Shown here in pieces: positions 7,344 through 61,575 of a stretch of DNA of 64,000 bases. Numbering within the stretch: position 1 is the stretch's first letter; each line of letters starts with the position of its first letter. The DNA comes from an uncultured delta proteobacterium (GTDB taxonomy: Bacteria > Desulfobacterota > Binatia > Binatales > Binataceae): positions 1,120,001 through 1,184,000 of the forward strand of contig CAWJET010000002.1 in NCBI GenBank assembly GCA_963842085.1, in the 5' to 3' direction. Under the pieces are notes generated by a model. It was not told where the DNA came from and ran no database searches. It saw nothing but the letters and a program-made list of their open reading frames with translations. The position numbers were made by a program, and so were the translations under genes.

Positions 7344-7467
7344 GAGTTGAGCCACATCGCGCGCTCAACATTTCTTATAGCCGCAGAGCGGCAAAAGATC
7401 ATCTCAAAGGCAGAGGAGGAATCTCGAATGGCGCGCGAAATTCGCCTTCCGTGCAACGACATCAGCA

Positions 7468-7568
7468 AAGGACCGCTACGCGATTTCAAAACCGGAACCG
7501 ACTTCGCTCACGCGAAGCTGTCCGAGATCCTTCCTGCCGCTCGCGTTGCTCGCTTCGTCAGGATGACA
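7468..7568. repeat. Dispersed palindromic repeat family B (ends ...CAGGATGACA), copy 1
   Basis: AAGGACCGCTACGCGATTTCAAAACCGGAACCGACTTCGCTCACGCGAAGCTGTCCGAG... closely matches 22641-22741 and, inverted, ~22503-22599. Confidence 0.85.
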
Positions 7569-8373
7569 GAGTGAGCAGGCGGTCAGTCAGCCAGCGCGCG
7601 AGCATTCGATTGATCGCGGCGACGGGATCCTGAATGTCGCCGTCGGCCGCGACGAGGTCGCAAATTTCCGCGAACGTGGCGCCGCGCGAGACTGCCTCGA
7701 GCGCGTCGGCTTCTGCGCGTTCGAGCTCGCGGTGGAGGACCCGCGCGTTGCGCCGCCATACGAGTACCTTGACCGCGCCCTGCTCCGCGGGTTTCCACGG
7801 GCGCTGCTCCTCGACCGCGCGCAACAGCTCTGAGACTCGCCAATCGAGCGCAAGGATTCGCGCTGACGGATGAATTGCGAGCTTCATCGCGGGCCAATCC
7901 TCAGGTGCAATCGCGCGAAGGGAGTCAGGCTCGAGCGCTGCGGCATCGGGACCTTGAAACACCTCGACGACGGCTCGTTCGAGCTTCGCGAGATCCGCGA
8001 CAAACGGCGCGCCGTCGCGCAGCGGATGGTCGCGCAAGTAGTCCGCGAGATGACGTCCGCAATAAGAGATCGACGGCTCGCTCGGTGAATATTCGAGCAG
8101 GTAGCCGGTGACCAGGTTGTGGAAGTTGTCATCGCCGAGGACCGCGAGCGTGCCGGGAAAATCCGCTTTGAGCGCGTCGAGGATGCGGTAGAAATACATG
8201 TTCGCGTAGATGTCCACGCGAGCTTCGGCCGACAGGCGCTCGTCGCCGAGCACGATCGCGTCGAGGCCGCCCGTGCCCAGCTTGCGCTCGGCCGCCAGTC
8301 CCTCGGCGGCGCCGCTAGGCGCGGTGATCAGCCGATAGAGCAGGCTTTGCAGTTCTTTTAGCTGAATCGTCAT
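7558..8373 (-). CDS. DUF2063 / HvfC-BufC-like MNIO partner protein
   Basis: LKELQ...RVDIYANMYFYRILDALKADFP...F...Y...P and ADLAKLE motifs; directly downstream of DUF692. Confidence 0.85.
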   Translation of the reverse strand: MTIQLKELQSLLYRLITAPSGAAEGLAAERKLGTGGLDAIVLGDERLSAEARVDIYANMYFYRILDALKADFPGTLAVLGDDNFHNLVTGYLLEYSPSEPSISYCGRHLADYLRDHPLRDGAPFVADLAKLERAVVEVFQGPDAAALEPDSLRAIAPEDWPAMKLAIHPSARILALDWRVSELLRAVEEQRPWKPAEQGAVKVLVWRRNARVLHRELERAEADALEAVSRGATFAEICDLVAADGDIQDPVAAINRMLARWLTDRLLTLSS

Positions 8374-9208
8374 CGTGTTTAGGAGCTGTGGCGTCGAAAA
8401 TAGCCCGTGCGCGATCCGCGGTCTCAGCCAGCTCCGCGAACTCCGGGATGTTGTCGTCCCACTCGACCAGCGCCGACACCGCGCCGAAGCGCCGTGCCGC
8501 ACGGTCGTACAGCGCCCACACTTCGTCGCGCACCGGATGGTCGTGCGTATCGAGCAGGTGCGTGCCGTGGTCGCTATGCCCGGCGAGATGGTACTGCACG
8601 ACGCGCTCGGCCGGCACCAAGTCAATATACTCATTGCCATCGAAGCGATGGTTGAACGCGCTCACGAAGATATTGTTGATGTCGAGCAGGATGCCGCAAT
8701 CGGCCTCGGCCGCTATGGCGGAAATGAAATCCCACTCGGTCATCGTCGAATCCGCAAACGCCATGTAGCTGGACACATTTTCGATCAGTATCGGGCGTTC
8801 GAGCGCGTCCTGCACATTGCGGATCCGCGCGACGACGTGCCTCAGCGCCTCCTCCGTGTACGGCAGCGGGAGCAAGTCGTGAAGATTGCGCCCGCCTACT
8901 CCTGTCCAGCACAGGTGATCCGAAATCCACGCGGGCTCGAGTCGCCGCGCGAGCTCGCGCAGCTTGTTTAGATAAGTGCGATTCAGCGGATCGGTGGACC
9001 CAATCGACATCGACACGCCATGCATCGCGATTGGATAGTTCGCGCGGACGCCTTCGAGCACTTCGAGCGCGCGGCCGCCCGCGACCATGAAATTCTCGGA
9101 GATGACCTCGAACCAGTCCACCTTGGGACGAGTCTCAAGGACGTAGCTGTAGTGCTGGCGTCTAAGGCCGACGCCGTAGCCAAGCATCGGGAAGTCGGAA
9201 CGTTTCAT
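8315..9208 (-). CDS. DUF692 family multinuclear non-heme iron oxidative enzyme (MNIO; BufB/HvfB-like)
   Basis: GVGLRRQHY, FEVISENF, HGVSMSIG, SDHLCW, LIENVSSY, LLDINN, HLAGH, DTHDHPV and EWD motifs. Confidence 0.95.
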   Translation of the reverse strand: MKRSDFPMLGYGVGLRRQHYSYVLETRPKVDWFEVISENFMVAGGRALEVLEGVRANYPIAMHGVSMSIGSTDPLNRTYLNKLRELARRLEPAWISDHLCWTGVGGRNLHDLLPLPYTEEALRHVVARIRNVQDALERPILIENVSSYMAFADSTMTEWDFISAIAAEADCGILLDINNIFVSAFNHRFDGNEYIDLVPAERVVQYHLAGHSDHGTHLLDTHDHPVRDEVWALYDRAARRFGAVSALVEWDDNIPEFAELAETADRARAIFDATAPKHDDDSAKRTAKPALSADHRA

Positions 9209-31074: not shown

Positions 31075-31152
31075 CTGCTCTCACCTCTCCGCTCGATGCG
31101 ACCGTCGGCCCGCGGCCGGCTTATGTCACGAAACCCTTTTTGCGACACCAAC

Positions 31153-31176
31153 AAAAAAGTGGGCGCGCGCCCACTT
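31153..31176 (-). promoter_or_regulatory. rimP-leader hairpin with a U-tail (attenuator-like)
   Basis: Minus strand AAGTGGGC-GCGC-GCCCACTTTTTT, ~80 nt upstream of rimP. Confidence 0.65.
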
Positions 31177-31364
31177 CACAACAAGCAGGATACCACCGCA
31201 GCCAACCTGTCAGCAAGCCACGTCAATTGCCGACGCGTGGCTTCGCTTTTGCCGCCGATGTAGATCTGTTTGCAGGCTGGCGTCGCATGAAGCCCCACCT
31301 CCCTGCCCACTCGGATGAAACGCGCGCCTCCCGGGCGCAAGCCGCATAGCTGGAGTCTAGTAAA

Positions 31365-31946
31365 ATGCGTATCGAACCACTCGAAGAAAAGCAGATGAGC
31401 TGGATGCTGAAGCCGCTGACCTGGATGATGAAGCGGCAGATTGGCAAAGTGGTAAATCCGTTCAAGGCGTGGGCGTACCGCCCCGGCATCACGATCGGGA
31501 TGGCGATCTTCATGCAGTCGATCGAAGGCTCCAAGGTCACGCCGCCGGCCTTGAAGCGCATGGTTTGTCTGCGCGCCGCACAGATGGTCGGCTGCGTTTT
31601 CTGAATAGATATCAACGCTGCCGGCGGCAGCAAGGTCGGAATCAGCGACGAGAAACTCGCCGCGCTGGCGGACTACCAGGAAAATCCGCTGTTCACGCCC
31701 GCCGAGCGCGCGGCGCTGCGCTACACCGAGGAGATGACGCTGAGCTCGGTCAATGTTCCCGACGAGGTCTTCGACGAGCTCAAGCGCCACTTCAACACCG
31801 AGCAAATCGTCGATTTGACTGCGACCGTCGCGCTCGAGAACATGCGCGCACGATTCAATCGCGCGCTGCAAATCGAAAGCGACAGTTTCTGCATGCTGCC
31901 GGCGCATCACCCCGCCTTGGCCTCGGATGGTGCCTCATTGAAATAG
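31365..31946 (+). CDS. AhpD/carboxymuconolactone decarboxylase family protein, probable selenoprotein (CxxU)
   Basis: ORF 31365-31604 ends ...QMVGCVF-TGA. The same frame continues IDINAAGGSKVGISDEKLAAL...FTPAERAALRYTEEMT...EQIVDLTATVALEN to TAG 31946. SECIS-like hairpin at 31617-31631. Confidence 0.85.
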
Positions 31947-32102
31947 CCGGCGCACGACTGACCGGGAGCGCGGATTCAGTTCTAAATCCAGATTTTCTCG
32001 ATTCGCGCGAGCCTGATAGTATCCTCGATGTTACTCCCGCGGGCCGTAACTCCGGCCCCACGGCGGAGTTATGCCGTTGGGGAGTTAGAAGGCAATCTCA
32101 CG

Positions 32103-33230
32103 TTGAAGCGATGGTGCGCGACAACTCTCCTCCCGACGCTCGCACTGCTTGCGATTGCCGGATGCTCGCACGGTCCCGCTGACACTTTCGGCGAGCACGA
32201 GGCCGTGCCCATCCTGGCGGCCAAGGTGGAACAGAAAACCGTCGCCGACACGATCCATGCGATCGGCCGCGTCGAGGCTTATTCCACCGTGGACGTGAAG
32301 GCGCAGATTAACGGCCAGGTCATGCAGGTGCACTTCCACCAGGGACAGAGCGTCAAGCAGGGCGACCTGCTGTTCACGATCGATCCGCGCCCGTTCCAGG
32401 TCGCGTTGCATCAGGCCGAAGCGAACCTGGCGAAGGATCGCGCGCAATACCGGCAAGCCGCGGCCGACCAGCAGCGCTACTCGTTTCTGCTCAAGCAGGG
32501 CGTCGGCTCGCAACAGCAATACGATCAAGCCGAGGCTGCGGCGGGATCGCTCAAAGCCGCGATGGAAGCCGACGACGCGGCCGTGCAGACCGCCAAATTA
32601 AATCTTGACTACACCGAGATTCGCGCGCCGATCGACGGCCGCACCGGCGACCTGCTGGTTCACGCCGGCAACCTGGTCAAGCCCGACGCCGACACCGCGA
32701 TGGTCGTTATCAACCAGGTGCGTCCGGTGTACGTCGACTTCGCGATTCCCGAGCAGAAGCTGCCGGCCGTGCGCGAGTACATGGCGGAGCGCAAGCTCCC
32801 GGTCCAGGTCTCGCTGCCCGAGCAGCAAGGCCCGCTCGAGTCGGGCGAGCTGAGCTTCGTCGATAACAGCGTCGATGCGAAGACCGGCACGATAAATCTC
32901 AAAGGACTGTTCACCAACGCCGACGGCCGGCTGTGGCCGGGCGAGTTCGTCAACGCGACGCTGGTTCTGCACGAGCACCCGGGCGCGATCCTGGTGCCGT
33001 CGCAGGCGGTCCAGACCGGCCAGCAGGGTTCGTTCGTCTTCGTCGTGCAGCCGGGGATGAAGGCCGAGATCAGGCCGGTCGTCATCGGCGAATCGATCGA
33101 CAACCACACCGTCATCACCAGTGGACTCAAGCCCGGCGAAACCGTCGTGACCGACGGCCAGCTCAGGCTGATTCCCGGCGCCAAGGTCACGATCAAAAGC
33201 GGCCTGACCGAGACCGGGGCCTCTTCATGA
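32103..33230 (+). CDS. RND efflux periplasmic adaptor (MdtA-like lipoprotein)
   Basis: LAIAGC lipobox, KQGDLLFTIDPRP, IRAPIDGRTG and VVTDGQLRL. The start is uncertain. Confidence 0.92.
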   Translation: MKRWCATTLLPTLALLAIAGCSHGPADTFGEHEAVPILAAKVEQKTVADTIHAIGRVEAYSTVDVKAQINGQVMQVHFHQGQSVKQGDLLFTIDPRPFQVALHQAEANLAKDRAQYRQAAADQQRYSFLLKQGVGSQQQYDQAEAAAGSLKAAMEADDAAVQTAKLNLDYTEIRAPIDGRTGDLLVHAGNLVKPDADTAMVVINQVRPVYVDFAIPEQKLPAVREYMAERKLPVQVSLPEQQGPLESGELSFVDNSVDAKTGTINLKGLFTNADGRLWPGEFVNATLVLHEHPGAILVPSQAVQTGQQGSFVFVVQPGMKAEIRPVVIGESIDNHTVITSGLKPGETVVTDGQLRLIPGAKVTIKSGLTETGASS

Positions 33231-36200
33231 ACATCGCCGAAGCCTTCATTCGCCGCCCTGTGATGACGACGCTGAGTTCGCTGGCGATCGTGCTGTTCGG
33301 CCTGATGGCGTACCGCTATCTGCCGGTGAACGATCTGCCCAACGTCGATTTCCCAACCATCGTGGTCAGCGCGTCGCTGCCGGGCGCCAGTCCCGAGACG
33401 ATGGCTTCGTCGGTGGCGACTCCGCTCGAAAAGCAGTTCTCGACGATCGCCGGGCTGGACTCGATGACCTCGACCAACATCCAGGGCTCGACCAACATCA
33501 CGCTGCAGTTCAACCTGACGCGGAACATCGACGCCGGTGCGCAGGACGTGCAGGCCGCGATCGCCGAGACGCAGGCCCAACTGCCGCAAGGGATGCCGAG
33601 TCCGCCCTCGTATCGCAAAGTCAACCCGGCCGACCAGCCGGTGCTCTATCTCGGCCTCAGCTCGACCACGATGCCGATTTCGCAGGTCGATGAGTACGCC
33701 GAGACCTACCTCGCCGAGCGCATCTCGATGGTCTCCGGCGTGGCGCAGGTGCAGGTCTACGGATCGCAAAAGTACGCCGTGCGGATTCAGCTCGATCCCA
33801 AGGCGCTGGCGACGCGCGGCATCGGCATCGATGAAGTTGCGAGCGCGATCCAGAACGCCAACGTCGATCTGCCGACTGGTACGCTCTACGGCTCACACCA
33901 GGCATTCACCGTCGATACCAAGGGCCAGTTGACCAATGCGGCTGCGTACCGCTCGCTGATCGTCGCGTACCAGAACGGCTCTCCGGTGCGGCTCGAGGAC
34001 CTCGGCCGCGTGCTCGACAGCGTGCAGAACGACAAGACCGCGGGCTGGGCCGACGGCGAGCGATCGGTCGTGCTCGCGGTGCAGCGCCAGCCGGGCACCA
34101 ACACGGTCGAAGTGGTCGACAACGTAATGCGCCTGATTCCCTCCTTCCGGGCTGAAGTTCCGGCCGGGCTGCATATCATCGTGCTGGGCGACCACGCGGA
34201 GACTATTCGCGCGTCGGTCAACGACGTCCAATACACCCTGCTGCTCACCATCTTCCTGGTCGTGATGGTGATCTTCCTGTTCCTGCGCAACCTCTCGGCA
34301 ACCATCATCCCGAGTCTCGCGCTGCCGATGTCCATCATCGGCACCTTCGCCGTCATGTGGACGCTCAACTACTCGCTCGACAACCTCTCGCTGATGGCGG
34401 TCACGCTCGCCGTCGGATTCGTGGTGGACGACGCCATCGTCATGCTCGAGAACATCGTGCGCCACCTGGAGATGGGCAAGGACGTGCTGACCGCGGCGCT
34501 CGACGGCTCCAGCGAAATCGGTTTCACCATCCTCTCGATGACTTTCTCGCTGGCCGCGGTGTTCATCCCGGTGCTGTTCATGGGCGGCATCCTCGGCCGC
34601 CTGCTGCACGAATTCGCGGTCACGATCGGCGCGGCTATTCTGGTGTCGGGCTTCGTCTCGCTGACTTTGACTCCGATGCTGTGTTCGCGCTTTCTGCGCC
34701 CGCCGGGGGCCGAGCGACACGGCAGGTTTTACGCCGTGACCGAGCGTTGGTTCGATCGGATGCTCGACGCCTACCAGCGCAGCCTGGCGTGGGTAATGCG
34801 CCATCGACGCGCGACCATGTATTTCTCCGGCGTGCTGCTGCTGTCGACGATCTACATGTTCTACGCGATTCCCAAGGGCTTCCTGCCGTCGGAAGACGCC
34901 GACCAGTTGATCATTTTCACGCTCGCAGCCCAGGGAATTTCCTTCGACTCGATGGTCGAGCATCAGCTCGCCGCCGCCAGCTTGATCAAGGATGATCCGA
35001 ACATCAAAAGCTACTTCGTCAGCGTCGGCGCGGGCGGACCGGGCGGCGCCACCAATTCAGGCATCATATTTCTGCACCTGAAGCCGGCCTCGGAGCGGAA
35101 ACTCAGCGTCGATCAGTTGATTACGAAGTGGCGGCCGCTCCTGAACAGCGTGCCGGGGCTGCGCGTGTTCCTGCAGAATCCGCCGCCCATCAGTATCGGC
35201 TCGCAATTCACGCGCAGCATGTACCAGATGACCTTGCAGAGCCAGAATACCGCCGCGCTCTACAAGTACGCGCCGATGCTCGAGTCGAAACTGCGCCAAT
35301 TGCCCGATCTGCGCGGCGTCAACAGCGACCTCCAGGTCGATAATCCGCAGATCACCGTCGATATCGATCGCGACAAGGCGCACTCGCTGGGCGTATCGGC
35401 CAATGCGATCGAAGACGCGCTCTACGACGCCTACGGCTCGCGCCAGATCTCCACCATCTACGCGCCCAACGACGAGTACTGGGTGATCATGGAAGTCCTG
35501 CCGCAGTATCAAGCCAATCCGTCCACCCTCTCACTCCTCTACGTTCGTTCGTCCAGCGGAGAGCTGGTGCCGCTCGACACCGTGGTCAAGTTCACGCGCT
35601 CGCTGGGGCCGTTGCAGATCAATCATTCGGGGCAGCTCCCTTCGGCCACCATTTCATTCGACGTCGCACCCGGCGTGTCGCTGGGCAAGGCGCTCGGCGA
35701 GGTCCACCAGCTCGCGGCTGCCACGCTGCCCGACAGCATCACCACCAGTTTCCAGGGCACCGCGCAGGCGTTCGAGTCGTCGCTGTCCGGGCTCGGTGTG
35801 TTGCTGGTGATGACGATCCTCGTGATCTACCTGGTGCTCGGCGTGCTCTACGAAAGCTTCGTCCATCCGATCACGATTCTCTCCGGCCTGCCCTCGGCCG
35901 GCTTCGGCGCGCTGATGACGCTGTGGCTTTTCGGCATGGAGCTCGACCTGTTCGCGTTCGTCGGCGTCATCATGCTGGTCGGCCTGGTCAAGAAAAACGC
36001 CATCATGATGATCGACTTCGCGCTCGACGCGCAGCGCACGGAAGGCAAGTCGCCGGCCGACGCGATCTTCGAGGGCTGCATCATCCGCTTCCGGCCGATC
36101 ATGATGACCACGATGGCGGCGCTGATGGGGACTTTGCCGATCGCGATTGGGCTGGGCGCCGGCGGCTCGTCGCGCCGCCCGCTGGGCGTGGCGGTAGTCG

Positions 36201-36391
36201 GCGGCCTGTTCTTCTCCCAGTTCCTGACGCTCTACATAACTCCGGTCTTCTACACCTACATGGAGGCGTTCCTGGCCCGTTACAACGCATGGCGCGAAGG
36301 CGGCCAGCTTGTGCCCGCGACCCGGCCCGCAGCCGCGAAAATCGCAAGCGCGCCAGCCGCCGACCCGGCCGACGGCCGCCTCGCGTCCTGA
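33227..36391 (+). CDS. RND efflux permease (MdtB/MdtC-like)
   Basis: FIRRPVMT, VGFVVDDAIVMLEN, KKNAIMMIDFA and RFRPIMMTT. Confidence 0.95.
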   Translation: MNIAEAFIRRPVMTTLSSLAIVLFGLMAYRYLPVNDLPNVDFPTIVVSASLPGASPETMASSVATPLEKQFSTIAGLDSMTSTNIQGSTNITLQFNLTRNIDAGAQDVQAAIAETQAQLPQGMPSPPSYRKVNPADQPVLYLGLSSTTMPISQVDEYAETYLAERISMVSGVAQVQVYGSQKYAVRIQLDPKALATRGIGIDEVASAIQNANVDLPTGTLYGSHQAFTVDTKGQLTNAAAYRSLIVAYQNGSPVRLEDLGRVLDSVQNDKTAGWADGERSVVLAVQRQPGTNTVEVVDNVMRLIPSFRAEVPAGLHIIVLGDHAETIRASVNDVQYTLLLTIFLVVMVIFLFLRNLSATIIPSLALPMSIIGTFAVMWTLNYSLDNLSLMAVTLAVGFVVDDAIVMLENIVRHLEMGKDVLTAALDGSSEIGFTILSMTFSLAAVFIPVLFMGGILGRLLHEFAVTIGAAILVSGFVSLTLTPMLCSRFLRPPGAERHGRFYAVTERWFDRMLDAYQRSLAWVMRHRRATMYFSGVLLLSTIYMFYAIPKGFLPSEDADQLIIFTLAAQGISFDSMVEHQLAAASLIKDDPNIKSYFVSVGAGGPGGATNSGIIFLHLKPASERKLSVDQLITKWRPLLNSVPGLRVFLQNPPPISIGSQFTRSMYQMTLQSQNTAALYKYAPMLESKLRQLPDLRGVNSDLQVDNPQITVDIDRDKAHSLGVSANAIEDALYDAYGSRQISTIYAPNDEYWVIMEVLPQYQANPSTLSLLYVRSSSGELVPLDTVVKFTRSLGPLQINHSGQLPSATISFDVAPGVSLGKALGEVHQLAAATLPDSITTSFQGTAQAFESSLSGLGVLLVMTILVIYLVLGVLYESFVHPITILSGLPSAGFGALMTLWLFGMELDLFAFVGVIMLVGLVKKNAIMMIDFALDAQRTEGKSPADAIFEGCIIRFRPIMMTTMAALMGTLPIAIGLGAGGSSRRPLGVAVVGGLFFSQFLTLYITPVFYTYMEAFLARYNAWREGGQLVPATRPAAAKIASAPAADPADGRLAS

Positions 36392-36420
36392 CGCCGGGGT
36401 TTTAGATAAAGAAGGATCCA

Positions 36421-36852
36421 ATGCGAGAGGACCGAAAGAAATCCATGTCGCGAGTGCGCGTTCGGTCTCAGCCACTGATTGCCGTCCGCGACGTACGCGC
36501 GAGCAGCCGCTGGTACAAACGACTGCTCGGTGTCGACACGCTCCCGGAGCATGAGCATCGCGATAGCTATGATCGGATGCTTTGTGATGGTCAGCTGGTC
36601 CTCCAGCTCCACGCGTGGGACGAGGAGGATCACCCTAATCTTGTCAATGCGGACGCGGCGCCACATGGACATGGGGTATTGCTCTGGTTCGAGGTGGACG
36701 ACTTCGATGCGGCCGTCGAACGAGCTCGCTCGCTCCAGGTCGAAGTCATCGAGGAGCCGCACGTCAACCCAAATTCCGGAGATCGCGAGATGTGGCTCCG
36801 CGACCCCGACGGCTACGTGGTAGTGATCGCAAGTCCTGATCGATCAGCTTAG
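36421..36852 (+). CDS. VOC/glyoxalase family protein
   Basis: AVRDVRASSRWY, LWFEVDD and WLRDPDGY. Confidence 0.88.
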   Translation: MREDRKKSMSRVRVRSQPLIAVRDVRASSRWYKRLLGVDTLPEHEHRDSYDRMLCDGQLVLQLHAWDEEDHPNLVNADAAPHGHGVLLWFEVDDFDAAVERARSLQVEVIEEPHVNPNSGDREMWLRDPDGYVVVIASPDRSA

Positions 36853-47520: not shown

Positions 47521-47660
47521 TGTGCGGAAATTGTGCGGCAGACCCGCGGTGTCAGAAGCGGTGCGAAGCTCGCGTATTGGTTGGGACGCGGAAACGCCGC
47601 ACGGCTCAGGAGACGAGAGCCGCGGGCGGCGTATGGTGATCGTGGTGACTGTGGTGACTG
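47521..47660. repeat. Left-end arm-type repeats: TGTGCGG x2 (47521, 47532) and TGGTGA(TC/CT)G x3 (47634-47660)
   Basis: Counterparts at 61315-61341 (direct) and 61387-61404 (inverted). Confidence 0.8.
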
Positions 47661-48736
47661 TTATTTCCGTCGTTCCCGCGTGATGGTACGACTGTCCGAG
47701 TCGTCGGCCGCGCGTCGAGATAGTGGTCGCGTCGCTCGACAGCGGCCTTGAGATCCGTGCTAGTGGTGATGTTGTAACGAAGAAAAATCTCGCGGGTTTT
47801 GTGACCTGACAGTTCCATCGCAACTTGCTCGGGAACACCCGCGCGGCTGAGGTTCCGAATTGCGCTGCGTCTAAAGTCATGGACAATCAGCTTGGGATAA
47901 CCGATCGCCGTACAGGCGGAAGCCCAGGCGTCGCGAAAATCCCCAATCCGCTTACCGTTGACGTGGAACACGAAAGTACAATCGAGACGACGCGCGGCTC
48001 GCGCGCGTGTGATTATTTCGGCGAGCTCGCCGGACAGTGGCAATTTGCGCGGTTCTTTGTTTTTAGACTTGTCGGGCGGCAGGTTGATTTCGTTGGCCTC
48101 GATGTCGATATCGGACCACTCAAGTCCCTTCATCTCGGAGACACGCCACCCTGAGAGATAGAGGAAGGCGATCGGGTCGCGCAGACGCTCAGGTAGCTCA
48201 TTCCGAAGGGCGTTGAACTCCGCGTTCTCGACGAATCCTTTTCGGGCGTTATCCTCCGCCAGCATGTCGATCTTCGGCGCGCGAGATAGGCACTCGTCGT
48301 CAACGGCGATCTTGAACGCATGTTTGAGCGCTGCCAGCTCACGGTTGATTGTCGCGTTCGCCGCGCCTTGTTCGATCCGCGCTGTCTTATAGGCTTTAAC
48401 CCGGCCGGCATCGATATCGATGGCTAGATCAGTCCCGAAGTAGCCGCTTAGGTGTTTGATGCTGCCCTCCAGCCGCCGTCCGGATCGGCGGCCCTTATGC
48501 AGGTAATCGGTGCGGATCATTTCGGCGAGGTCTTCGAAGCGCACCTTTTCTTCGGCCTGTCCGAGGAACTTAGCGCCGCGGCGTCCGGTTTCCTTGATCC
48601 TTGCGTTCAGCAAGCGCCGCGCGACGGTTTCGGATTCGCTTTCGGACGACTCGCGATATTCCTGGCCGCGGTGCCCGTAGCGAATCCACCAAATTGTCCC
48701 GCGCAAATAGATGCCGCCTGTGCCGCGTTTACTCAT
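47606..48736 (-). CDS. Tyrosine recombinase / integrase
   Basis: N-terminal arm-binding-like GIYLRGTIWWIRY; catalytic R (GWRVSE), K (KSKNK), HDFRR, H (SGH) and Y (RYNI) all present. Confidence 0.95.
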   Translation of the reverse strand: MSKRGTGGIYLRGTIWWIRYGHRGQEYRESSESESETVARRLLNARIKETGRRGAKFLGQAEEKVRFEDLAEMIRTDYLHKGRRSGRRLEGSIKHLSGYFGTDLAIDIDAGRVKAYKTARIEQGAANATINRELAALKHAFKIAVDDECLSRAPKIDMLAEDNARKGFVENAEFNALRNELPERLRDPIAFLYLSGWRVSEMKGLEWSDIDIEANEINLPPDKSKNKEPRKLPLSGELAEIITRARAARRLDCTFVFHVNGKRIGDFRDAWASACTAIGYPKLIVHDFRRSAIRNLSRAGVPEQVAMELSGHKTREIFLRYNITTSTDLKAAVERRDHYLDARPTTRTVVPSRGNDGNNSHHSHHDHHTPPAALVS

Positions 48737-49728
48737 GACTTTCGCTCCTTCTTTTTCATCGGATTCTCACTTTGCCGGATTTCCGTGGCCGCATCGGCGA
48801 CTTTTTTTCTATCGCGTGCGGCCTGCGCGGCGTCGCGGGCTGGGATACGGGCCGCTCGGCAGGTAGGGCAATAGATGCGCCTGGCCGTCGCGTGCCCGAC
48901 TCTCTTACCTGGTGTCGGCTGGCTTGCGGACATAAAAAACAGGCGCGCGCAGGACGAGCAGCGCGCAATCGCCGCGGCCCGGACGGTTGCGGCGACGAGT
49001 TCCAGCGCGATCAACGCTAGGACTGAGCCCGTGTAGCGGTTGGCGCCGAGTTGCGGACGGACACTTCGGCCTTCGATGCCGACGTGGAATCTAACGTCCG
49101 CGATTACGAGCCAGCGATTCAGATTCTCCGCCAGCCGCTCGCGGGGATCGGAAAGAAACTGAGCGATTGGATGGTCCGGCGCATAGCCATCGATTTGCTG
49201 CCATGTTTCCGGGGCGACTTTAGCTCCGCGCTGGGTTGTCGCCGCGGCCTCGAGCAGGCGATTAGCGTCGGCGGCGCGCATACGCCACTGCGATACCGGC
49301 TCGGAATAGAGCAGCGGCGGTTCCCGCCCTATTCGTGGAAGGCAAATGAGGGTCGTCCCACCAGCCCAATGCGGCGCGGCAGGGAATTCTTCGGGCAATA
49401 CGTTGCATCCCATCGTCTCGACGGGCTGATGGTATGCGACGAAATTATGCTGTTCGCAGAGCCAGAGCGGCCCATAAGCGCGGGCAAACTCGAGCACGTC
49501 CTCATTTCCGGCCACGGGTGTTTCGAGGGCAAGGAAACTTTCGAGCATTGCGCCAATCTCGATCTTCCGCGCCGCCGCTTTCGCGCTCCAGAGAAGATCG
49601 TCGCCGGCGAGACTGAGGGTTTCGGGCGCTGACACACTGGAGCCGTCGATCGGCCGGGAGAGACCATAGGCCGTAAACAGGTCGCCCAGTCGCGCTATAC
49701 CTACGGGTTCTGGTGGCCCCTTCGTCAT
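48733..49728 (-). CDS. Hypothetical protein with C-terminal zinc finger (CGNR-like)
   Basis: FARAYGPL motif; CSSC...YCPTC followed by a basic helix. Overlaps the integrase start and is divergent from alpA. Confidence 0.65.
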   Translation of the reverse strand: MTKGPPEPVGIARLGDLFTAYGLSRPIDGSSVSAPETLSLAGDDLLWSAKAAARKIEIGAMLESFLALETPVAGNEDVLEFARAYGPLWLCEQHNFVAYHQPVETMGCNVLPEEFPAAPHWAGGTTLICLPRIGREPPLLYSEPVSQWRMRAADANRLLEAAATTQRGAKVAPETWQQIDGYAPDHPIAQFLSDPRERLAENLNRWLVIADVRFHVGIEGRSVRPQLGANRYTGSVLALIALELVAATVRAAAIARCSSCARLFFMSASQPTPGKRVGHATARRIYCPTCRAARIPARDAAQAARDRKKVADAATEIRQSENPMKKKERKS

Positions 49729-49782
49729 ACGATAATAATACACGAGTTGCAGGCACGCCGCAACCGTGAGACAACTATGCGC

Positions 49783-49983
49783 ATGAGCGCGCAACGCAAC
49801 GAAGAAACACTTCTGTCGCTCGAACAGGTTCTACAGCGCCTGCCGATTGAAGGGCGGCCGCACCGGGTGACGCTTTGGCGTTGGATAAACCAAGGCGTTT
49901 TTCCGCAGCCGTTACGACTCGGGCTGCGCAAGGTCCGATGGCGCGAAAGTGACGTCGATGCCTGGCTGGCGGAACGCAAATGA
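49783..49983 (+). CDS. AlpA family transcriptional regulator
   Basis: TLWRWINQGVFPQPLRLGLRKVRWRESDVDAWL. Confidence 0.9.
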   Translation: MSAQRNEETLLSLEQVLQRLPIEGRPHRVTLWRWINQGVFPQPLRLGLRKVRWRESDVDAWLAERK

Positions 49984-50285
49984 TCACGCTCGACGCTCTT
50001 ATTGCCGGCGAGTGTCCGACCTCGCGCGATGAGGCGGTCGCTCTGATGGGCTTGCTCGCGGCTGCTCACGCCAAGCTCGCTGCGGTCATGGCGGTGGCTA
50101 TGGTCGAGACGCCGACCGCGGACCGGCTGCTGGACGTTGACGAAGCCGCCCAGATGCTCAAGGTGGATCGGCAGTGGATATACCGGCGCACGCGCAAACT
50201 TCCGTTCGTCGTTCGCCTCGACGGCGCCGTCCGCTTTAGTGCCTCGGGCATCGAGCGCTTCATCGCGGCAAAGAGGGGGCGGTGA
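49980..50285 (+). CDS. HTH_17 / excisionase-like DNA-binding protein
   Basis: RLLDVDEAAQMLKVDRQWIYRR...LPFVVRLDGAVRFS. Confidence 0.85.
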   Translation: MITLDALIAGECPTSRDEAVALMGLLAAAHAKLAAVMAVAMVETPTADRLLDVDEAAQMLKVDRQWIYRRTRKLPFVVRLDGAVRFSASGIERFIAAKRGR

Positions 50286-51934
50286 TGGAACCTGCGCGAT
50301 TGAAAATAGTGAAGGCGTTGGAACCGACGCGACCGCGGATAGTGGTGCTGCCAGGCGAGCGGCCGTGGCTGATTGACGGAGCCGAAGAGGCTGTTCTCGA
50401 GAACTACGCTCGATGGGGGCTCTTTCAGCCCGGTGACTTGCTGGTTCGAACGACAACCTTGAGCGCCGAAGACGTTGAAAAAGAGAAACTCATCCGTCGC
50501 AAGGCCGGCTCCGTCATTTTGCGACGAGCCACCGCGCCGATGCTTGAGGACATTTTCGGTCGCGCCATCCACTGGGTGGTGCGGGTCCCGGACAAAGACA
50601 AGGTGCCGGGCTCATTCAAAGACAAGGTGATTGATTGCCCGCCCAAGGTCGCGGCGATCTACCTCTCCCGGGAAGGTATGTGGCGACTGCCGCGTCTGAC
50701 AGGGATTATCGAGGCGCCGATCATGCGGCCCGACGGGAGCGTCCTGACCGCGCCCGGTTACGATGAGGCGACCGGCCTACTCCTCCAGTCTCCGATTGCC
50801 TGGCCGGCGCTGCCCGCACCGTCGAAAGGTGCGGCCGAGGCCGCTGCAAAGTGTCTAATCGAGCCCTTTGACGAATTCCCGTTTTCATCACGCGCCGGCT
50901 CGAGCGTGCTGCTCAGTGCGATGCTCACAGGGCTTCAACGGCGGCTGCTGCCCACTGCTCCCGCGCACGCATTCGACGCGAGCATTCAAGCCGCGGGCAA
51001 AACGATTCAGGGCGACTGCGTATCGCTATTTCTTACCGGACGCGAAATAGCGTCGATGACCTTCAATTCAAACGAAGAAGAATTCCGCAAAAAATTGATG
51101 GCCGGCCTGGTTGCTGGCGATGCGATTTTCGAGATCGACAACATCACGAAACCGCTGCGCTCCGACACTCTCGCGTCGATTCTGACGAAGACACTGCACA
51201 GCGATCGGATCATGGGGCTTGGCGAGAACCGATCGGTGCCCACCAATTGCCTGTTCATTCTTACAGGCAATAATCTACAGTTTTCGGGCGATATGCCGAG
51301 TCGCGTGATCAGTTCGCGCGTCGAGCCCGACTGTGAGCGGCCCGAGGAACGGACCTTCAAAATTTGCAACCTTCGCGCCCATGTGCTCGAGCGTCGGCCG
51401 CAGTTCGTGAAGGCGGCTCTAACGATCTTGCAATCCTATTTTCACGCCGGGCGGCCGCCTCAGGGTCTTAAGCCGTTCGGCCGATTCGAGCAGTGGTCCG
51501 ACGAGATTCGCAGCGCGATCGTCTGGGCGGGGCTCCCAGATCCTTGCTTAAGCCGTGATGAAGTAATCGACGCCGATCCAGAGCGCGACGCCGCACTCGC
51601 AGTCCTCGAAAACTGGTTCCGGGTCCTCGCCGATGCGCAGACCACCATTCAGGCGTTGATCCGATGTGCAACCGGTCACGGGATGCTCGGCGATCATGAT
51701 TTCAGGCCGCCCGACGACGAGCTGAAAACCGCGCTGCTCGGAATCGCCGCAGACTATGAGTGCGCCGACAAGATATCTTCGCAACGGCTCGCTGCGTGGT
51801 GTCGCGATCGTGTCGGTCGCATCTTCGGCGAGTACAAACTTGTCCGCAGCGGCAAGGCGCACGCGGGCTTTCAGACTTGGCAAATTGTGAAATTAAACAA
51901 ACCGACGGAAACGATAGTAACTAAGGAGATTTGA
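50282..51934 (+). CDS. Putative replication helicase (SF3-like ATPase of phage/satellite type)
   Basis: RPDGSVL..PGYD..TG, Walker A (QAAGKT), Walker B (FEIDN) and TGNN motifs. No primase domain recognised. Confidence 0.75.
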   Translation: MMEPARLKIVKALEPTRPRIVVLPGERPWLIDGAEEAVLENYARWGLFQPGDLLVRTTTLSAEDVEKEKLIRRKAGSVILRRATAPMLEDIFGRAIHWVVRVPDKDKVPGSFKDKVIDCPPKVAAIYLSREGMWRLPRLTGIIEAPIMRPDGSVLTAPGYDEATGLLLQSPIAWPALPAPSKGAAEAAAKCLIEPFDEFPFSSRAGSSVLLSAMLTGLQRRLLPTAPAHAFDASIQAAGKTIQGDCVSLFLTGREIASMTFNSNEEEFRKKLMAGLVAGDAIFEIDNITKPLRSDTLASILTKTLHSDRIMGLGENRSVPTNCLFILTGNNLQFSGDMPSRVISSRVEPDCERPEERTFKICNLRAHVLERRPQFVKAALTILQSYFHAGRPPQGLKPFGRFEQWSDEIRSAIVWAGLPDPCLSRDEVIDADPERDAALAVLENWFRVLADAQTTIQALIRCATGHGMLGDHDFRPPDDELKTALLGIAADYECADKISSQRLAAWCRDRVGRIFGEYKLVRSGKAHAGFQTWQIVKLNKPTETIVTKEI

Positions 51935-52389
51935 AAATGGATCGGAAAGAATTCGAGGGGATCGAAACTGAGGAGCGCGTCACATTTTCGCTGAACGATG
52001 CCTGGCGGATCGTCGCCGAAGGGCCCGAGGCCGCGGTCGATCGTGCTCTCGCGCGCATCGCGCCATTCCGCCTCGAGGTCGCCGAGGTCCTGCGCGAACG
52101 GCAGGGGTTGCCTAAGCGCGGCGAAGAAATCGTCAGGCGAGAGGTGTCGGCGAACGTGCCGAGCAAAGAGGTGCAGCGCGCGAACTATATCAAATGGTTC
52201 AGCGAGAAAGGTATGTACTATAGGCCCAGCGAGCAGGAGCTTGACGCGATGTTCGCGCAGGTTAATGAGGGGGATGAGATTTTTTTGATTTCGCCCACTC
52301 GTTCACGGTGCGCCGTCCGAATGGGCTCCTTGTGGCTGTGGACCGCAAGGGCCGCGTCACTCCGCCGTCGCCGTACAGCCCGGCGCTGA
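51931..52389 (+). CDS. Hypothetical protein (possible frameshift at the T7 run 52280-52286)
   Basis: AAGGAG RBS and overlap with the helicase stop. Confidence 0.55.
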   Translation: MKMDRKEFEGIETEERVTFSLNDAWRIVAEGPEAAVDRALARIAPFRLEVAEVLRERQGLPKRGEEIVRREVSANVPSKEVQRANYIKWFSEKGMYYRPSEQELDAMFAQVNEGDEIFLISPTRSRCAVRMGSLWLWTARAASLRRRRTARR

Positions 52390-52435
52390 AAAAGTAGAAA
52401 AGGAACGGCCGCGAGCGTTACGAGCGCCGGCGGCC

Positions 52436-53284
52436 GTGACGGAGAGAAACGCAATGAGTCCGACGACCATATCAGAGCCGCGCGTGCCGTGGCGCAACGA
52501 TCTGCGCGCGGAGTTGAATTCGATCGCGAACTGCAACCTTCACAAGTACACAGGAATCGAAGGGCTGTCCCTCGGGCTGCACGTCATTCACGTGCATCCG
52601 CCAGACTACGTGAGTAAGGACGACTACACCTTTAAGCTGTCCTGGAAGGAGCGACGACTCACTCGCGACCCGCACCGGCCGCAACCGGCGCTATCGCGGC
52701 AAAGGTTTGACGAGCTGGTGGATCATGAACGCCGATTCGGCCGGCGCTCACGCATCGCAGACGAGGATCGCGTGCTCTCGGGCGTCGATCTATTGGCCGA
52801 CAACTCGTGGCCTTTTTGTCGCACTTGCGGCCTGCCCTTCGCCGCGATGCTGAATGGGCACCCGAGACAGGGCTTTTGGGTGTGTCGAATCGAGGACGGC
52901 GCCGATCTCTGCGAGTGCTGCTGGCTGGCTGAGCATTACGCCGGCGACCGCCAAGCGATGATTCAGCACGTGCTCGCGCAAGACCTCGGCGGCGACGTGA
53001 TGCGTGCGTCCGTCAGACTGGGGCTCCGCCGCGGGTGGGATGACGACACCATATTTTTTCGGAACGTGGAGGCCTACTGGACCTCGCCCGGACTCTTCGA
53101 ATTGCTTCGGCTTCATCGGGTCAGCATGTCGGAATCCGCCGGAGTGATCTTGCAGGTGCTCGAGGCGCTGATTGCTGAGGCGAAACCCGAGGAGCGGTTG
53201 TCGAAGCAACAGAGGGACGAGCGACGCGCGGCACTGTGGCGCGACGAGCAGCGCGATCCGCGCACGCTCGCGGCTATCGGGTGA
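52436..53284 (+). CDS. Hypothetical protein with putative Zn-binding motifs
   Basis: CRTC...CECC; operon context. Confidence 0.55.
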   Translation: MTERNAMSPTTISEPRVPWRNDLRAELNSIANCNLHKYTGIEGLSLGLHVIHVHPPDYVSKDDYTFKLSWKERRLTRDPHRPQPALSRQRFDELVDHERRFGRRSRIADEDRVLSGVDLLADNSWPFCRTCGLPFAAMLNGHPRQGFWVCRIEDGADLCECCWLAEHYAGDRQAMIQHVLAQDLGGDVMRASVRLGLRRGWDDDTIFFRNVEAYWTSPGLFELLRLHRVSMSESAGVILQVLEALIAEAKPEERLSKQQRDERRAALWRDEQRDPRTLAAIG

Positions 53285-53340
53285 AAGCACTTGAGCGAGC
53301 GGCGCTGGACCGGGCGCACGGCTGAGGGAGTCCGACCGAC

Positions 53341-53751
53341 ATGAGGTACACCGATACCTTTGAGGTTGGCTGGGCCTTGGTCAAACGCTCGACGGGGAAG
53401 GCGATTCTATGCGTTGGCCGCCCGCCTTGTGTCATCGCCGGCAATGACATGTGGGTGCCGCGCAGCCAACTTCGCTGCGACCTAAGTCGTGTCGGTGACT
53501 ACGGACTCCTAGTTGTAACCGGCTGGTGGGCGAACAAGAGCGGCCTACTCGATATTGACGACGTTGACGACGACCGCTGCGATGAACATCACGAACCACC
53601 AGCACCGCTCCGGCTGGTCGAGACTGAGCAGACTTATCGCCGCCTGGCGAACGAGCATCACCCTGATCACGGCGGCAACCTTCGCGTGATGCAAGCGATC
53701 AACTTGTTAATAGACGCGGTGCACAGGGACCTGCGCCGCGCAAATGGGTGA
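53341..53751 (+). CDS. Hypothetical protein with C-terminal J-domain-like HPD motif
   Basis: YRRLANEHHPDHGGNLRVMQAIN. Confidence 0.65.
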   Translation: MRYTDTFEVGWALVKRSTGKAILCVGRPPCVIAGNDMWVPRSQLRCDLSRVGDYGLLVVTGWWANKSGLLDIDDVDDDRCDEHHEPPAPLRLVETEQTYRRLANEHHPDHGGNLRVMQAINLLIDAVHRDLRRANG

Positions 53752-53805
53752 AATGCAGACATCGGAAATTTTTCAGGCACGCCTTGAGTGTGCTCTTTGT
53801 CGCGC

Positions 53806-53985
53806 ATGGACAGCAATCAAACAGATTCGGGCGCGTTCGTCTCGATTCCGGCCGCGGCGAAAAAATTGGGTGTGAGCACAAAACGGCTTGCGCTGGCGAT
53901 CGATCTGAGGCAGGTGCCGGCGGTCATGCTCGGCCGGCGCAAAGTGATCCCGAGGCAGGCGATCCAGAAGCTACTAGACCAATGA
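53806..53985 (+). CDS. Excisionase-like HTH protein
   Basis: VSIPAAAKKLGVS...VPAVMLGRRKVIPRQAIQKLL. Confidence 0.8.
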   Translation: MDSNQTDSGAFVSIPAAAKKLGVSTKRLALAIDLRQVPAVMLGRRKVIPRQAIQKLLDQ

Positions 53986-54191
53986 GAAAAACGGACGAGC
54001 TATTCGCCGCCTACCGCGCTTTGATCGACGAGCACCTCGCGATGCGAAAACAGCTCGGCGCGGCAATGCGGACCTTTGAACGCGAATTTCGCGCGTGCAG
54101 GCCGGAAGATGAAGCGTCGCTGGCGTCGAAGTTTCGCGCGATTCTGGAGGCGCTTCGTGCGTCTGAAATAGGAAAGGAGAGCAACGAGTGA
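53982..54191 (+). CDS. Small helical hypothetical protein
   Basis: ATGA and GTGA overlaps with both neighbours. Confidence 0.6.
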   Translation: MRKTDELFAAYRALIDEHLAMRKQLGAAMRTFEREFRACRPEDEASLASKFRAILEALRASEIGKESNE

Positions 54192-54865
54192 ACAAGGAAA
54201 TTTTTGATGAAATTTTTGCTGACTTTTCTGCCGCGAACAAACTGATCGAGCGCGATCCGGTCGTGATGGGCGAGAGGCTCGCTCGAGCAGCCTGCGATCG
54301 AATCCTTCTGCCGGATCTGCCGGTGGACGTTCTACACAAGGGTTTAAGTCAGCGGGTTGGTGCGCTGTCGGGCCGCATGAAGGACGCCGTCGAGCGTGGC
54401 AGGGCGTATCTGATTGCCGAAACGATCATCCCGGAATTCGCGAACGATCTGCGCGACTGGATGAGCTATGAGCGAAGGTCAGGGGCGTTGAAGCCCTGGT
54501 CCGCGGCGGACAAGGGCAAGGGCAAGGCTCACCTGTTCGAAGGGTTCGCGTGGCACCGCGAGCCCGGCATGATCATAAGGCGCCTCGAACGTGGCGATGA
54601 TTTCGGAAAGATAACCTTTCGCGAAGTTGAGATCGTCGGCGCTGACGGCACCCATAAGCCTTCGTTCGTACGACGCGATCCGCGTATCGACGACTACCGG
54701 CCGGTCGGTCGGAGCAAAGAGAGTTGGTATCAAGAGTGGTGCACGCCAGAAAGCGTGATCGCCGAAGCTGAGGCGGCGGCGCGGCGCGAGGAGGAAATCG
54801 CAACGCGGCCATTTTCAGCCACGTCCGGGCCGAATGCCGGCGAGGCGACAGTGGTGCGCCGATGA
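54188..54865 (+). CDS. Hypothetical protein
   Basis: AAGGAG RBS; translationally coupled. Confidence 0.6.
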   Translation: MNKEIFDEIFADFSAANKLIERDPVVMGERLARAACDRILLPDLPVDVLHKGLSQRVGALSGRMKDAVERGRAYLIAETIIPEFANDLRDWMSYERRSGALKPWSAADKGKGKAHLFEGFAWHREPGMIIRRLERGDDFGKITFREVEIVGADGTHKPSFVRRDPRIDDYRPVGRSKESWYQEWCTPESVIAEAEAAARREEEIATRPFSATSGPNAGEATVVRR

Positions 54866-55257
54866 GCGGAATTTGCGTCGGCGGGATCGCGATCGAGATT
54901 ATGTCCAATGAAAGGGGGAATTCCATGTATGGTTTAACAGAGCTCTCAACTTATGGCCTGAGAGAGGCCGTGCGCCGCGTTATGACGGCGATGAATGAAG
55001 ATCCCCGCGCAGGGGAAGCGATGCTGCGAGCGCGCGGTAAGGGCGGGCTCGTAGGCGTGTCGCTTCACGCATCTCCACCAGGTTCGCAACCATATCCCGG
55101 AAAACGTGCACCGTCGCCGTTTCCGCCGGCGGATGACTGGCGGCCGTCAAATCCCGGTGTAGTCGAGTCCGACGAAGATGACGACGACGGTCTCGAGATG
55201 GGCGTTCAATTTCCAGATCGATCGACGAACCGCAGTCGCCGAAAAAAGGGGAAGTAA
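54862..55257 (+). CDS. Hypothetical protein (acidic/basic C-terminus)
   Basis: Coupled ORF; the start is uncertain. Confidence 0.5.
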   Translation: MSGICVGGIAIEIMSNERGNSMYGLTELSTYGLREAVRRVMTAMNEDPRAGEAMLRARGKGGLVGVSLHASPPGSQPYPGKRAPSPFPPADDWRPSNPGVVESDEDDDDGLEMGVQFPDRSTNRSRRKKGK

Positions 55258-55259
55258 AC

Positions 55260-55541
55260 ATGGGCTGGAACACGAAACTGAGCAACGTCGCCAAGTCAGG
55301 ATCGACGACGGCGATCAACGCGCTGACCGCCGCGAATTGCGCCGGCGACGTTGGCAAGGATGCTGGTTTCGCGACGCATCTTTCGGCGGCCCAAAACGCC
55401 GCGATCGCCGCCGTCGCGGGGCTCGGAGGCGCCGCTGCGAACTGCGACGTCTCCCTAGTCTGCAATACAGACACCGGACCAGGCCGGGCCGGAATCGACG
55501 CTGGCGCTGTGATCACGATCACAGTGGTCGAGCGACATTGA
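55260..55541 (+). CDS. Small Ala/Gly-rich hypothetical protein
   Basis: GGGGAAG RBS, 2 nt after the previous stop. Confidence 0.6.
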   Translation: MGWNTKLSNVAKSGSTTAINALTAANCAGDVGKDAGFATHLSAAQNAAIAAVAGLGGAAANCDVSLVCNTDTGPGRAGIDAGAVITITVVERH

Positions 55542-55714
55542 TGTGTGAAGAAGTTTTGCCGAGGCGTGCGGTAGTACCGCCCGCTCGAAAGCCGCCGGTT
55601 TTGCCGCCGGCGGCCCCCTCGGCAAAGCCGAGGCAAGCGCGGCCTTGTTCCCCGCGTGAGGGTTCGGTGCGCCTTCCACGCCGGCCCTCAGCCTCGGCGA
55701 TTTCTGAATCGTGA
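55541..55714 (+). CDS. Small Pro/Arg-rich hypothetical protein
   Basis: TGATG overlaps on both sides. Confidence 0.4.
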   Translation: MCEEVLPRRAVVPPARKPPVLPPAAPSAKPRQARPCSPREGSVRLPRRPSASAISES

Positions 55715-56130
55715 TGGAAACTTCAACCGCAATTGAACCGAGTAAGCCTCGACGCACGCCCGCGCTTAAGCGCGACCAACAGCGGCGCCGAAAAGTGACA
55801 GCCTTGGTCCGGCTCAGCGGCCGTGACGATCCTAAGTATCGTCCGGGGTTCCAAATGGCGGCCGAAATTCTTCTGGTCAAAGAGCGCGTCTATTTAAGTT
55901 TGAAAGATCGGGAACTCATTAACCCGGATGGCTCGGTCATCGGTGCGGTCGAAAGTTTCCGAAGACTTTGCGACAGCGCGGGCGCGGCCTTGAAGGCGCT
56001 AGGTCTGCTCCCCAGCTCCGTTCTACCCGATGAGCGTGCCGGATCTCTCGATGCCGTCTTCGAACGGATTTCAAAGGTACGCAGGGTACGCGAAGGGGCC
56101 GCGAGCGGTGAGCAGAGCCCAGCAGCTTGA
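55711..56130 (+). CDS. Putative terminase small subunit
   Basis: Overlaps the terL start; helical, with an ALGLLPSS motif reminiscent of P27-type TerS. Confidence 0.55.
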   Translation: MMETSTAIEPSKPRRTPALKRDQQRRRKVTALVRLSGRDDPKYRPGFQMAAEILLVKERVYLSLKDRELINPDGSVIGAVESFRRLCDSAGAALKALGLLPSSVLPDERAGSLDAVFERISKVRRVREGAASGEQSPAA

Positions 56131-61490: not shown

Positions 61491-61575
61491 TGCCGGGGGC
61501 GGGACTCGAACCCGCACGGAGCTTTCGCTCCAGAGGATTTTAAGTCCTCTGCGTATGCCATTTCGCCACCCCGGC
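61491..61575 (-). tRNA. tRNA-Leu(TAA)
   Basis: GCCGGGG acceptor stem, anticodon arm AGAGGA-CTTAAAA-TCCTCT, long variable arm GGAGC-GAAA-GCTCC and GGTTCGAGTCC T-loop; CCA not encoded. Confidence 0.97.

Follow-up and report, generated by a model that had tools for sequence, protein, structure and literature searches.

An AhpD/CMD-fold gene of Binatia with a conserved in-frame TGA and SECIS-like hairpin, a very probable selenoprotein gene beside RND efflux genes

Selenoproteins of the AhpD-like type, in which selenocysteine (Sec) takes the second position of a CxxU motif, have been known since 2005 and were described from Sargasso Sea and GOS data as AhpD-like 1, assigned to COG2128, and AhpD-like 2, assigned to pfam02627 (Zhang, Gladyshev and co-workers 2005, 2008; PMC1088965, PMC2398784). 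The table of a 2026 review carries both an 'AhpD-like protein TIGR01926 CxxU' and a 'CMD-like protein PF02627 CxxU' (PMC13188914), and AhpD-like/CMD selenoproteins are also among the entries of BSepDB (PMC13326102); the precedent to which the original prediction for the present locus appealed is thus in print. Here we compare these systems with a gene in the window, the 64-kb stretch of Binataceae DNA that was analysed, whose product, if a single in-frame TGA is read through, would be an AhpD/CMD-fold protein of 193 residues. To the extent of their published descriptions, the marine AhpD-like selenoproteins have in common with this product the fold family, the Sec at the second motif position, the existence of Cys homologues and a SECIS element just past the UGA. 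They are set apart from it by profile score, the window protein reaching 32.8 bits against TIGR01926 ('peroxidase-related enzyme', its second-best NCBIfam match) where the cutoff is 81.8, by its relatives, which are Binatia MAGs whose TGA-carrying records name no marine source, and by its linkage to an RND efflux pump. The best curated match is NCBIfam NF053654 ('GroundWater_YciW', a YciW-related (seleno)protein), which aligns with the window protein end to end (residues 2-174 on profile positions 3-175 of 179). On these scores the window family is a sister of NF053654 and not a member, because the window protein (136.8 bits) and all 11 of the 11 relatives tested (109-141 bits) fall below the cutoff of 310; the same 11 relatives also remain below the TIGR01926 cutoff, at 27-47 bits.

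Comparison at the level of the fold places the read-through product (P0001; U was entered as C in the searches) within the CMD/AhpD family. It matches Pfam PF02627 (CMD) at 42.9 bits against a cutoff of 23 (E = 5e-11), and an AlphaFold model built from 42 sequences, with a pLDDT of 92.5 and a pTM of 0.87, gave Foldseek TM-scores of 0.78-0.81 against the PDB entries for Bmp8, 2prr, D. radiodurans AhpD (6k40) and S. pneumoniae AhpD (6e8l). The predicted fold is AhpD-like, in agreement with the AhpD/CMD identity originally proposed, and in the model residues 78-90 form a helix with C77 and U80 at its N-terminus. In alignments with Pseudomonas aeruginosa PA0269, Agrobacterium Atu0492 and Bmp8, U80 occupies the position of the second Cys of CxxC, which is precisely where the TGA had been predicted to fall. 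In AhpD proper the motif is CxxCxxxH, with a His four residues after the second Cys. The window protein has Asn84 at that position, and its homologues have Asn or Gly there, so that an AhpD-type proton relay is not guaranteed. The debrominase Bmp8 operates by a thiol-based dehalogenation mechanism. Its structures (PDB 6ohi, 6ohj) align with the window protein over residues 5-171 on 14-179 at a TM-score of 0.78-0.79, with CxxC at the same position; Bmp8 differs in its low identity (~22%) and in having Cys at both motif residues. The closest solved sequences are those of PA0269/AhpD (PDB 2ijc, 2o4d, 7xw1) and Atu0492 (2gmy), at E = 2e-20, ~32% identity and an rmsd of 1.5-1.6 Å. Both carry CxxC at the place of the window's CxxU, but they are shorter (133-165 residues, without the N-terminal ~55 residues), have Cys and not Sec, and have His where the window protein has Asn84.

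The gene itself occupies positions 31365..31946 of the forward strand, the TAG stop codon at 31944-31946 included, and we consider it very probable that this interval is one intact gene for a 193-residue AhpD/CMD selenoprotein in which the TGA at 31602..31604 on the same strand is decoded as Sec. Its designation as a complete coding sequence is based on translation with TGA read as U, the Pfam CMD match, full-length collinear homologues in 63 loci and dN/dS; our confidence in Sec stops short of full because sel genes were unseen in the DNA searched. The ATG start codon at 31365-31367 is confirmed by a conserved MRI... N-terminus across the loci, and a Shine-Dalgarno-like GGAG at 31352..31355 (forward strand), read from the sequence, stands 9 nt 5' of it. 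The TGA is preceded by 79 codons, lies in the peptide context GCVF*IDIN and is followed by 113 codons free of any further stop. Cys77, with which the CxxU redox motif begins (TGC, 31593..31595, forward strand), is invariant in a 42-sequence alignment (A4), while the pattern of TGA and Cys codons among the loci and the alignment with the CxxC of the PDB relatives point to Sec as residue 80. The original prediction had described a gene that the list of open reading frames splits, with an open frame of 113 codons past the TGA. That list does cut the gene in two, 31365-31604 (79 aa) and 31734-31946 (70 aa), the open frame does end at the TAG, and the predicted coordinates of gene, TGA and hairpin all match the sequence to the base.

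Conservation of the TGA codon was assessed in both protein and genomic DNA searches. The protein search returned 76 matches at E <= 1e-10 among 199 candidates, and 30 were aligned. Among full-length proteins, the four nearest, at 77-88% identity, show W where the window has TGA, which probably reflects a gene caller's TGA=Trp model applied to short contigs, and nine proteins at 54-59% identity (P0006-P0014) have Cys in the context GCSFCIDIGSA. Some 50 of the 76 matches are C-terminal fragments of 106-132 residues, two of them bearing the NCBI name 'hypothetical protein' and coming from Candidatus Binataceae, and all eight of the clean C-terminal fragments that were aligned start at the residue directly after the TGA position. 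The search of genome contigs for homologous DNA gave 63 loci, mostly from Candidatus Binatus and Binataceae MAGs, the non-Binatia labels being Chloroflexota (3), Pseudomonadota (4), Polyangia (1), Myxococcaceae (1) and Dadabacteria (1). A check for homologues with TGA or Cys at this position had been proposed along with the prediction, and its outcome was clear: the aligned codon is TGA in 53 of the 63 loci and Cys in seven (TGT in six, TGC in one), and TAA or TAG in none. The remaining three loci could not be scored at the codon, L039 and L050 being frameshifted before the motif and L060 being a distant homologue without it. TGA forms outside Binatia comprise the records labelled Chloroflexota (3), Pseudomonadota (4), Polyangia (1) and Myxococcaceae (1).

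Selection on the region beyond the TGA is evident from substitution rates. Against ten TGA-carrying relatives, dN/dS was 0.09-0.38 over codons 2-79 and 0.11-0.18 over codons 81-176 (10 of 10 pairs), and the latter values indicate that the region downstream of the TGA is translated. All 28 invariant columns of a second alignment (A2) fall after residue 80; of the 22 rows in A2, 8 are C-terminal fragments and contribute nothing before that point. Taken with the codon counts, these data show read-through of the gene and selection on the TGA codon. A quick maximum-likelihood tree of 64 rows, whose backbone lacks resolution, puts the window in a starred clade of 30 Sec forms, nearest to L002 and to L004, which is a Candidatus Binatus sp. 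record; the seven Binatia Cys forms make up one starred clade. Records of Candidatus Binatus themselves differ, L032-L037 and L049 as against L001-L031 showing the Cys or the Sec form at what is seemingly the same RND-linked locus; for example, Cys is found in L035 and Sec in L003 and L004. A few loci are irregular. The gene is frameshifted in L039, L048 and L050, L048 retaining the TGA and having a one-base insertion right after the hairpin, and the Cys-form reading frame of L037 continues for 490 codons without a stop; these frameshifts and the run-on may be either assembly indels or real decay.

The second element of the prediction was a SECIS-like hairpin with a G-starting loop 18 nt past the UGA. 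This candidate SECIS hairpin (31617..31631, forward strand) consists of a 6-bp stem with arms GCTGCC (31617-31622) and GGCAGC (31626-31631) enclosing a GGC loop (31623-31625), and the spacing from TGA to loop is exactly 18 nt (31605-31622). Judged from the window sequence alone it is weakly unusual. The single-sequence fold of 70 nt has a z of -0.65, with 52 of 200 shuffles folding at least as well, and of the 1667 TGA triplets in the window 140 (8.4%) are followed by a rule-passing hairpin and 74 (4.4%) by one with an energy of -8.9 kcal/mol or lower. The comparative data put the combination of TGA and hairpin far beyond chance. On alignment A3, which holds the 54 TGA-containing sequences (the window and 53 loci), RNAalifold recovers the stem unprompted; the hairpin is kept in 54 of 54 TGA forms, 97.5% of the 318 cells of the six stem pairs are standard pairs, with compensatory changes among them, and none of 500 shuffles matches either the observed pairing or the covariation score. 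At the outer pair 36 sequences have G-C, 12-13 have U-A, 3 have U-G, 1 has G-U and 1 has no pairing, the changes there stemming from Ala to Ser on one side and from Ser to Arg on the other, and in L055 a C-G replaces the U-A that other sequences have in one stem pair. Owing to self-similarity in the sequence, 85.8% of cells remain paired when the 3' arm is shifted by -3, and no compensatory change occurs in that register. A lower stem involving the UGA itself was present in the single-sequence fold, was missing from the consensus structure and was dropped.

Synonymous sites provide a further measure of constraint on the RNA. Third-position entropy is 0.14, 0.00 and 0.14 bits at the three codons lying fully inside the stem, whereas the loop codon reaches 1.51 bits and four-fold sites elsewhere 1.2-1.9 bits, and the GCT stem codon is retained in 52 of 53 sequences despite G+C-rich third positions. 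The hairpin is a conserved RNA element under selection. Its form was compared with the rules for bacterial SECIS elements as they are set out in the 2026 review, namely a loop of 3-9 nt with a G in its first two bases, a stem of 4-16 bp, a spacing of 16-37 nt and an energy of <= -7.5 kcal/mol (PMC13188914), which we applied with our own script and not with bSECISearch. The window hairpin satisfies all four rules, at -8.9 kcal/mol, as do 47 of the 54 TGA forms overall; in the other seven this hairpin is kept, with energies between -5.5 and -7.0 kcal/mol, and only the energy rule is missed. None of the seven Cys forms passes the rules, the hairpin is absent from all seven, and the residues at its site are SAIAM where the TGA forms have AAGGS. 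A scan of the window at Rfam gathering thresholds returned tRNA-Leu only, and a permissive scan of 31500-31750 returned four chance matches below gathering, none of them to a SECIS family. The hairpin is conserved, covarying and within the published rules, and the prediction made for it stands.

Several other explanations of a conserved TGA within an open frame have to be weighed against Sec. We see a small chance that the codon is read as a standard residue such as Trp, Cys or Gly, through a reassigned code or near-cognate suppression, with the hairpin merely stimulating read-through. Such a reading would accommodate the four public gene calls that put W at the codon, and it is consistent with the results of our searches for Sec machinery. 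No selA, selB, selD or tRNA-Sec was found in the 64-kb window, where the sole tRNA is tRNA-Leu and no sel gene occurs among the 41 ORFs scanned; tblastn with E. coli K-12 SelA, SelB and SelD against the 1,118,530 bases of the window and the 63 loci gave only a match of SelB to the window's infB; and ARAGORN detected no tRNA-Sec in the 60 of 63 loci scanned. A second selenoprotein gene was likewise not found in the window, all of its 33 open TGA sites apart from that at 31602 looking like antisense or off-frame artefacts, and the 44 selenoprotein candidates of the window and loci together comprise 37 members of the AhpD-like family and seven that resemble off-frame noise. Against decoding as a standard residue, TGA is the commonest stop codon of the window, ending 13 of its 22 confidently assigned genes, and its use as the usual stop excludes genome-wide recoding. 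Moreover, the codon alternates with Cys codons only, at the catalytic CxxC position, and in the selenoprotein literature such alternation marks Sec/Cys pairs (PMC13188914). The size of the hairpin, its G-first loop and its spacing are also those of bacterial SECIS elements.

Very improbable, in our estimate, is a pair of polypeptides, in which a 79-residue N-terminal piece would end at the TGA and a C-terminal piece would be re-initiated just past it. The codon after the TGA is ATG or GTG in 15 of 53 TGA forms, and gene callers begin their fragments there, yet in the window and most relatives it is ATA, ATT or ATC, which are not usual starts; the split would also run through the CxxC motif and break a helix that is continuous in this single-domain fold, and would leave the conservation of the hairpin without explanation. 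Finally, we give virtually no credence to a pseudogene or sequencing error, that is, a nonsense mutation in an ordinary CxxC CMD gene, to which the two pieces in the ORF list, the frameshifts in three of 63 related loci and the loss from the window of the relatives' upstream genes might point, since 53 of 63 independent genomes share the TGA and none has TAA or TAG at that codon, purifying selection persists past it and 113 codons follow without another stop.

The genomic context of the proposed selenoprotein gene suggests a link to efflux. Downstream on the forward strand lie genes for an RND efflux periplasmic adaptor of the MdtA/MuxA-like type (32028..33230; TIGR01730, 289 bits) and for an RND efflux permease of the MdtB/MdtC-like type (33227..36391; NF033617, 1213 bits), the start of the latter being approximate, as ORF 32933-36391 matches the family only from residue 99 onward. 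The adaptor gene begins 81 nt past the selenoprotein stop codon (31947-32027), no terminator-like site was found between the two, and they are likely to be on the same transcript. In 47 of the 63 loci, six of the seven Cys forms among them, an adaptor homologue in the same orientation follows the gene directly, and the permease is also kept downstream among the loci. A gene of the glyoxalase/bleomycin-resistance (VOC) superfamily follows on the forward strand in the window (36421-36852), 29 nt (36392-36420) past the permease; it was rejected as a conserved partner, being found in 4 of 63 loci at distances that vary.

Upstream of the gene, and in its orientation, the relatives carry a small membrane-like ORF (in 47 of the 63 loci), an amidohydrolase (in 41), an ECF sigma factor (in 32) and a 2Fe-2S (Fer2)-domain ORF (in 32). 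In L019 (8253-9983), a TGA-form locus of the complete chromosome OY970324.1, and its equivalents, 32 of the 63 loci in all, the order is ECF sigma factor, 2Fe-2S ORF and then the small membrane-like ORF, which has a weak DUF6632 match, a set that could be a redox-sensing anti-sigma arrangement. The sigma, Fer2 and membrane genes are missing upstream in the window, where a rearrangement is seen just 5' of the gene (31075-31364), similarity to the relatives beginning at ~31307. The window has instead a divergent rimP-nusA-infB operon upstream, an arrangement present in 0 of 63 loci and hence rejected as a conserved neighbourhood.

Elsewhere in the window, the interval 47606-57576 resembles an integrated element. 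It contains two adjacent tyrosine-recombinase-like ORFs (47606-48736 and 48733-49794), an HTH_17 excisionase-like ORF (49980-50285), a phage terminase large subunit split over overlapping ORFs (56030-57148 and 57094-57576) and several ORFs without a family match, and the tRNA-Leu gene (61491-61575) is located near it. In a separate ORF at 7558-8640 a DUF2063 domain is recognised, along with weak similarity to HvfC-family RiPP maturation proteins that scores 57.6 bits where the cutoff is 142; the ORF adjoining it at 6228-7355 has no family match.

These observations, together with the known bacterial Sec pathway, suggest how the gene may work. When the UGA at 31602-31604 is reached, the hairpin at 31617-31631 would be bound by SelB with Sec-tRNA(Sec), and selenocysteine would go in at position 80 in place of termination. 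Cys77 and Sec80, predicted to sit at a helix N-terminus, would then correspond to the redox-active CxxC of AhpD-type proteins and could, judging from fold and motif, cycle between the selenol/thiol and selenenylsulfide states while reducing a peroxide, a peroxiredoxin-type partner or some other oxidised or electrophilic compound. The function would accordingly be that of a selenol/thiol oxidoreductase, and the 193-aa Sec redox protein of the original prediction is supported as an interpretation in which both the Sec and the chemistry are inferred. Synteny with the RND efflux genes and, in the relatives, with the ECF sigma, 2Fe-2S and membrane genes leads us to propose that the protein may belong to a stress-responsive detoxification module. 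A more specific possibility, which we regard as unlikely, is that the Sec AhpD-fold protein is a dedicated partner of the adjacent RND efflux pump and not a general peroxidase helper. It would in that case reductively disarm an electrophilic, halogenated or oxidised small molecule, in a Bmp8-like manner, before or alongside export, and in the relatives the ECF sigma factor with a 2Fe-2S-domain sensor would switch on the whole module.

In summary, the window gene is in all likelihood a selenoprotein gene of a known kind, within a Binatia-centred subfamily for which there is no curated model. What it offers is not a change in how Sec decoding or the nature of AhpD-like selenoproteins is understood. 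The mis-annotation that was expected of such a gene is borne out across the family, which is systematically mis-called in public records as the ~50 truncated C-terminal fragments and the four full-length calls with W at the TGA, and because no NCBIfam model reaches its cutoff, annotation pipelines will keep splitting the gene. A full-text literature search found nothing linking Binatia with selenoproteins, and for Binatota one paper that came up has selenocysteine in its reference list only. The selenoprotein reading would imply that Binatia decode selenocysteine. Binatia are an uncultured lineage of soil and sediment. Their orthologous, efflux-linked locus provides a clean Sec/Cys pair, and should the protein prove to be a dedicated partner of the pump, the presence of Sec or Cys at orthologous loci of Candidatus Binatus would amount to a natural swap experiment within one genus.
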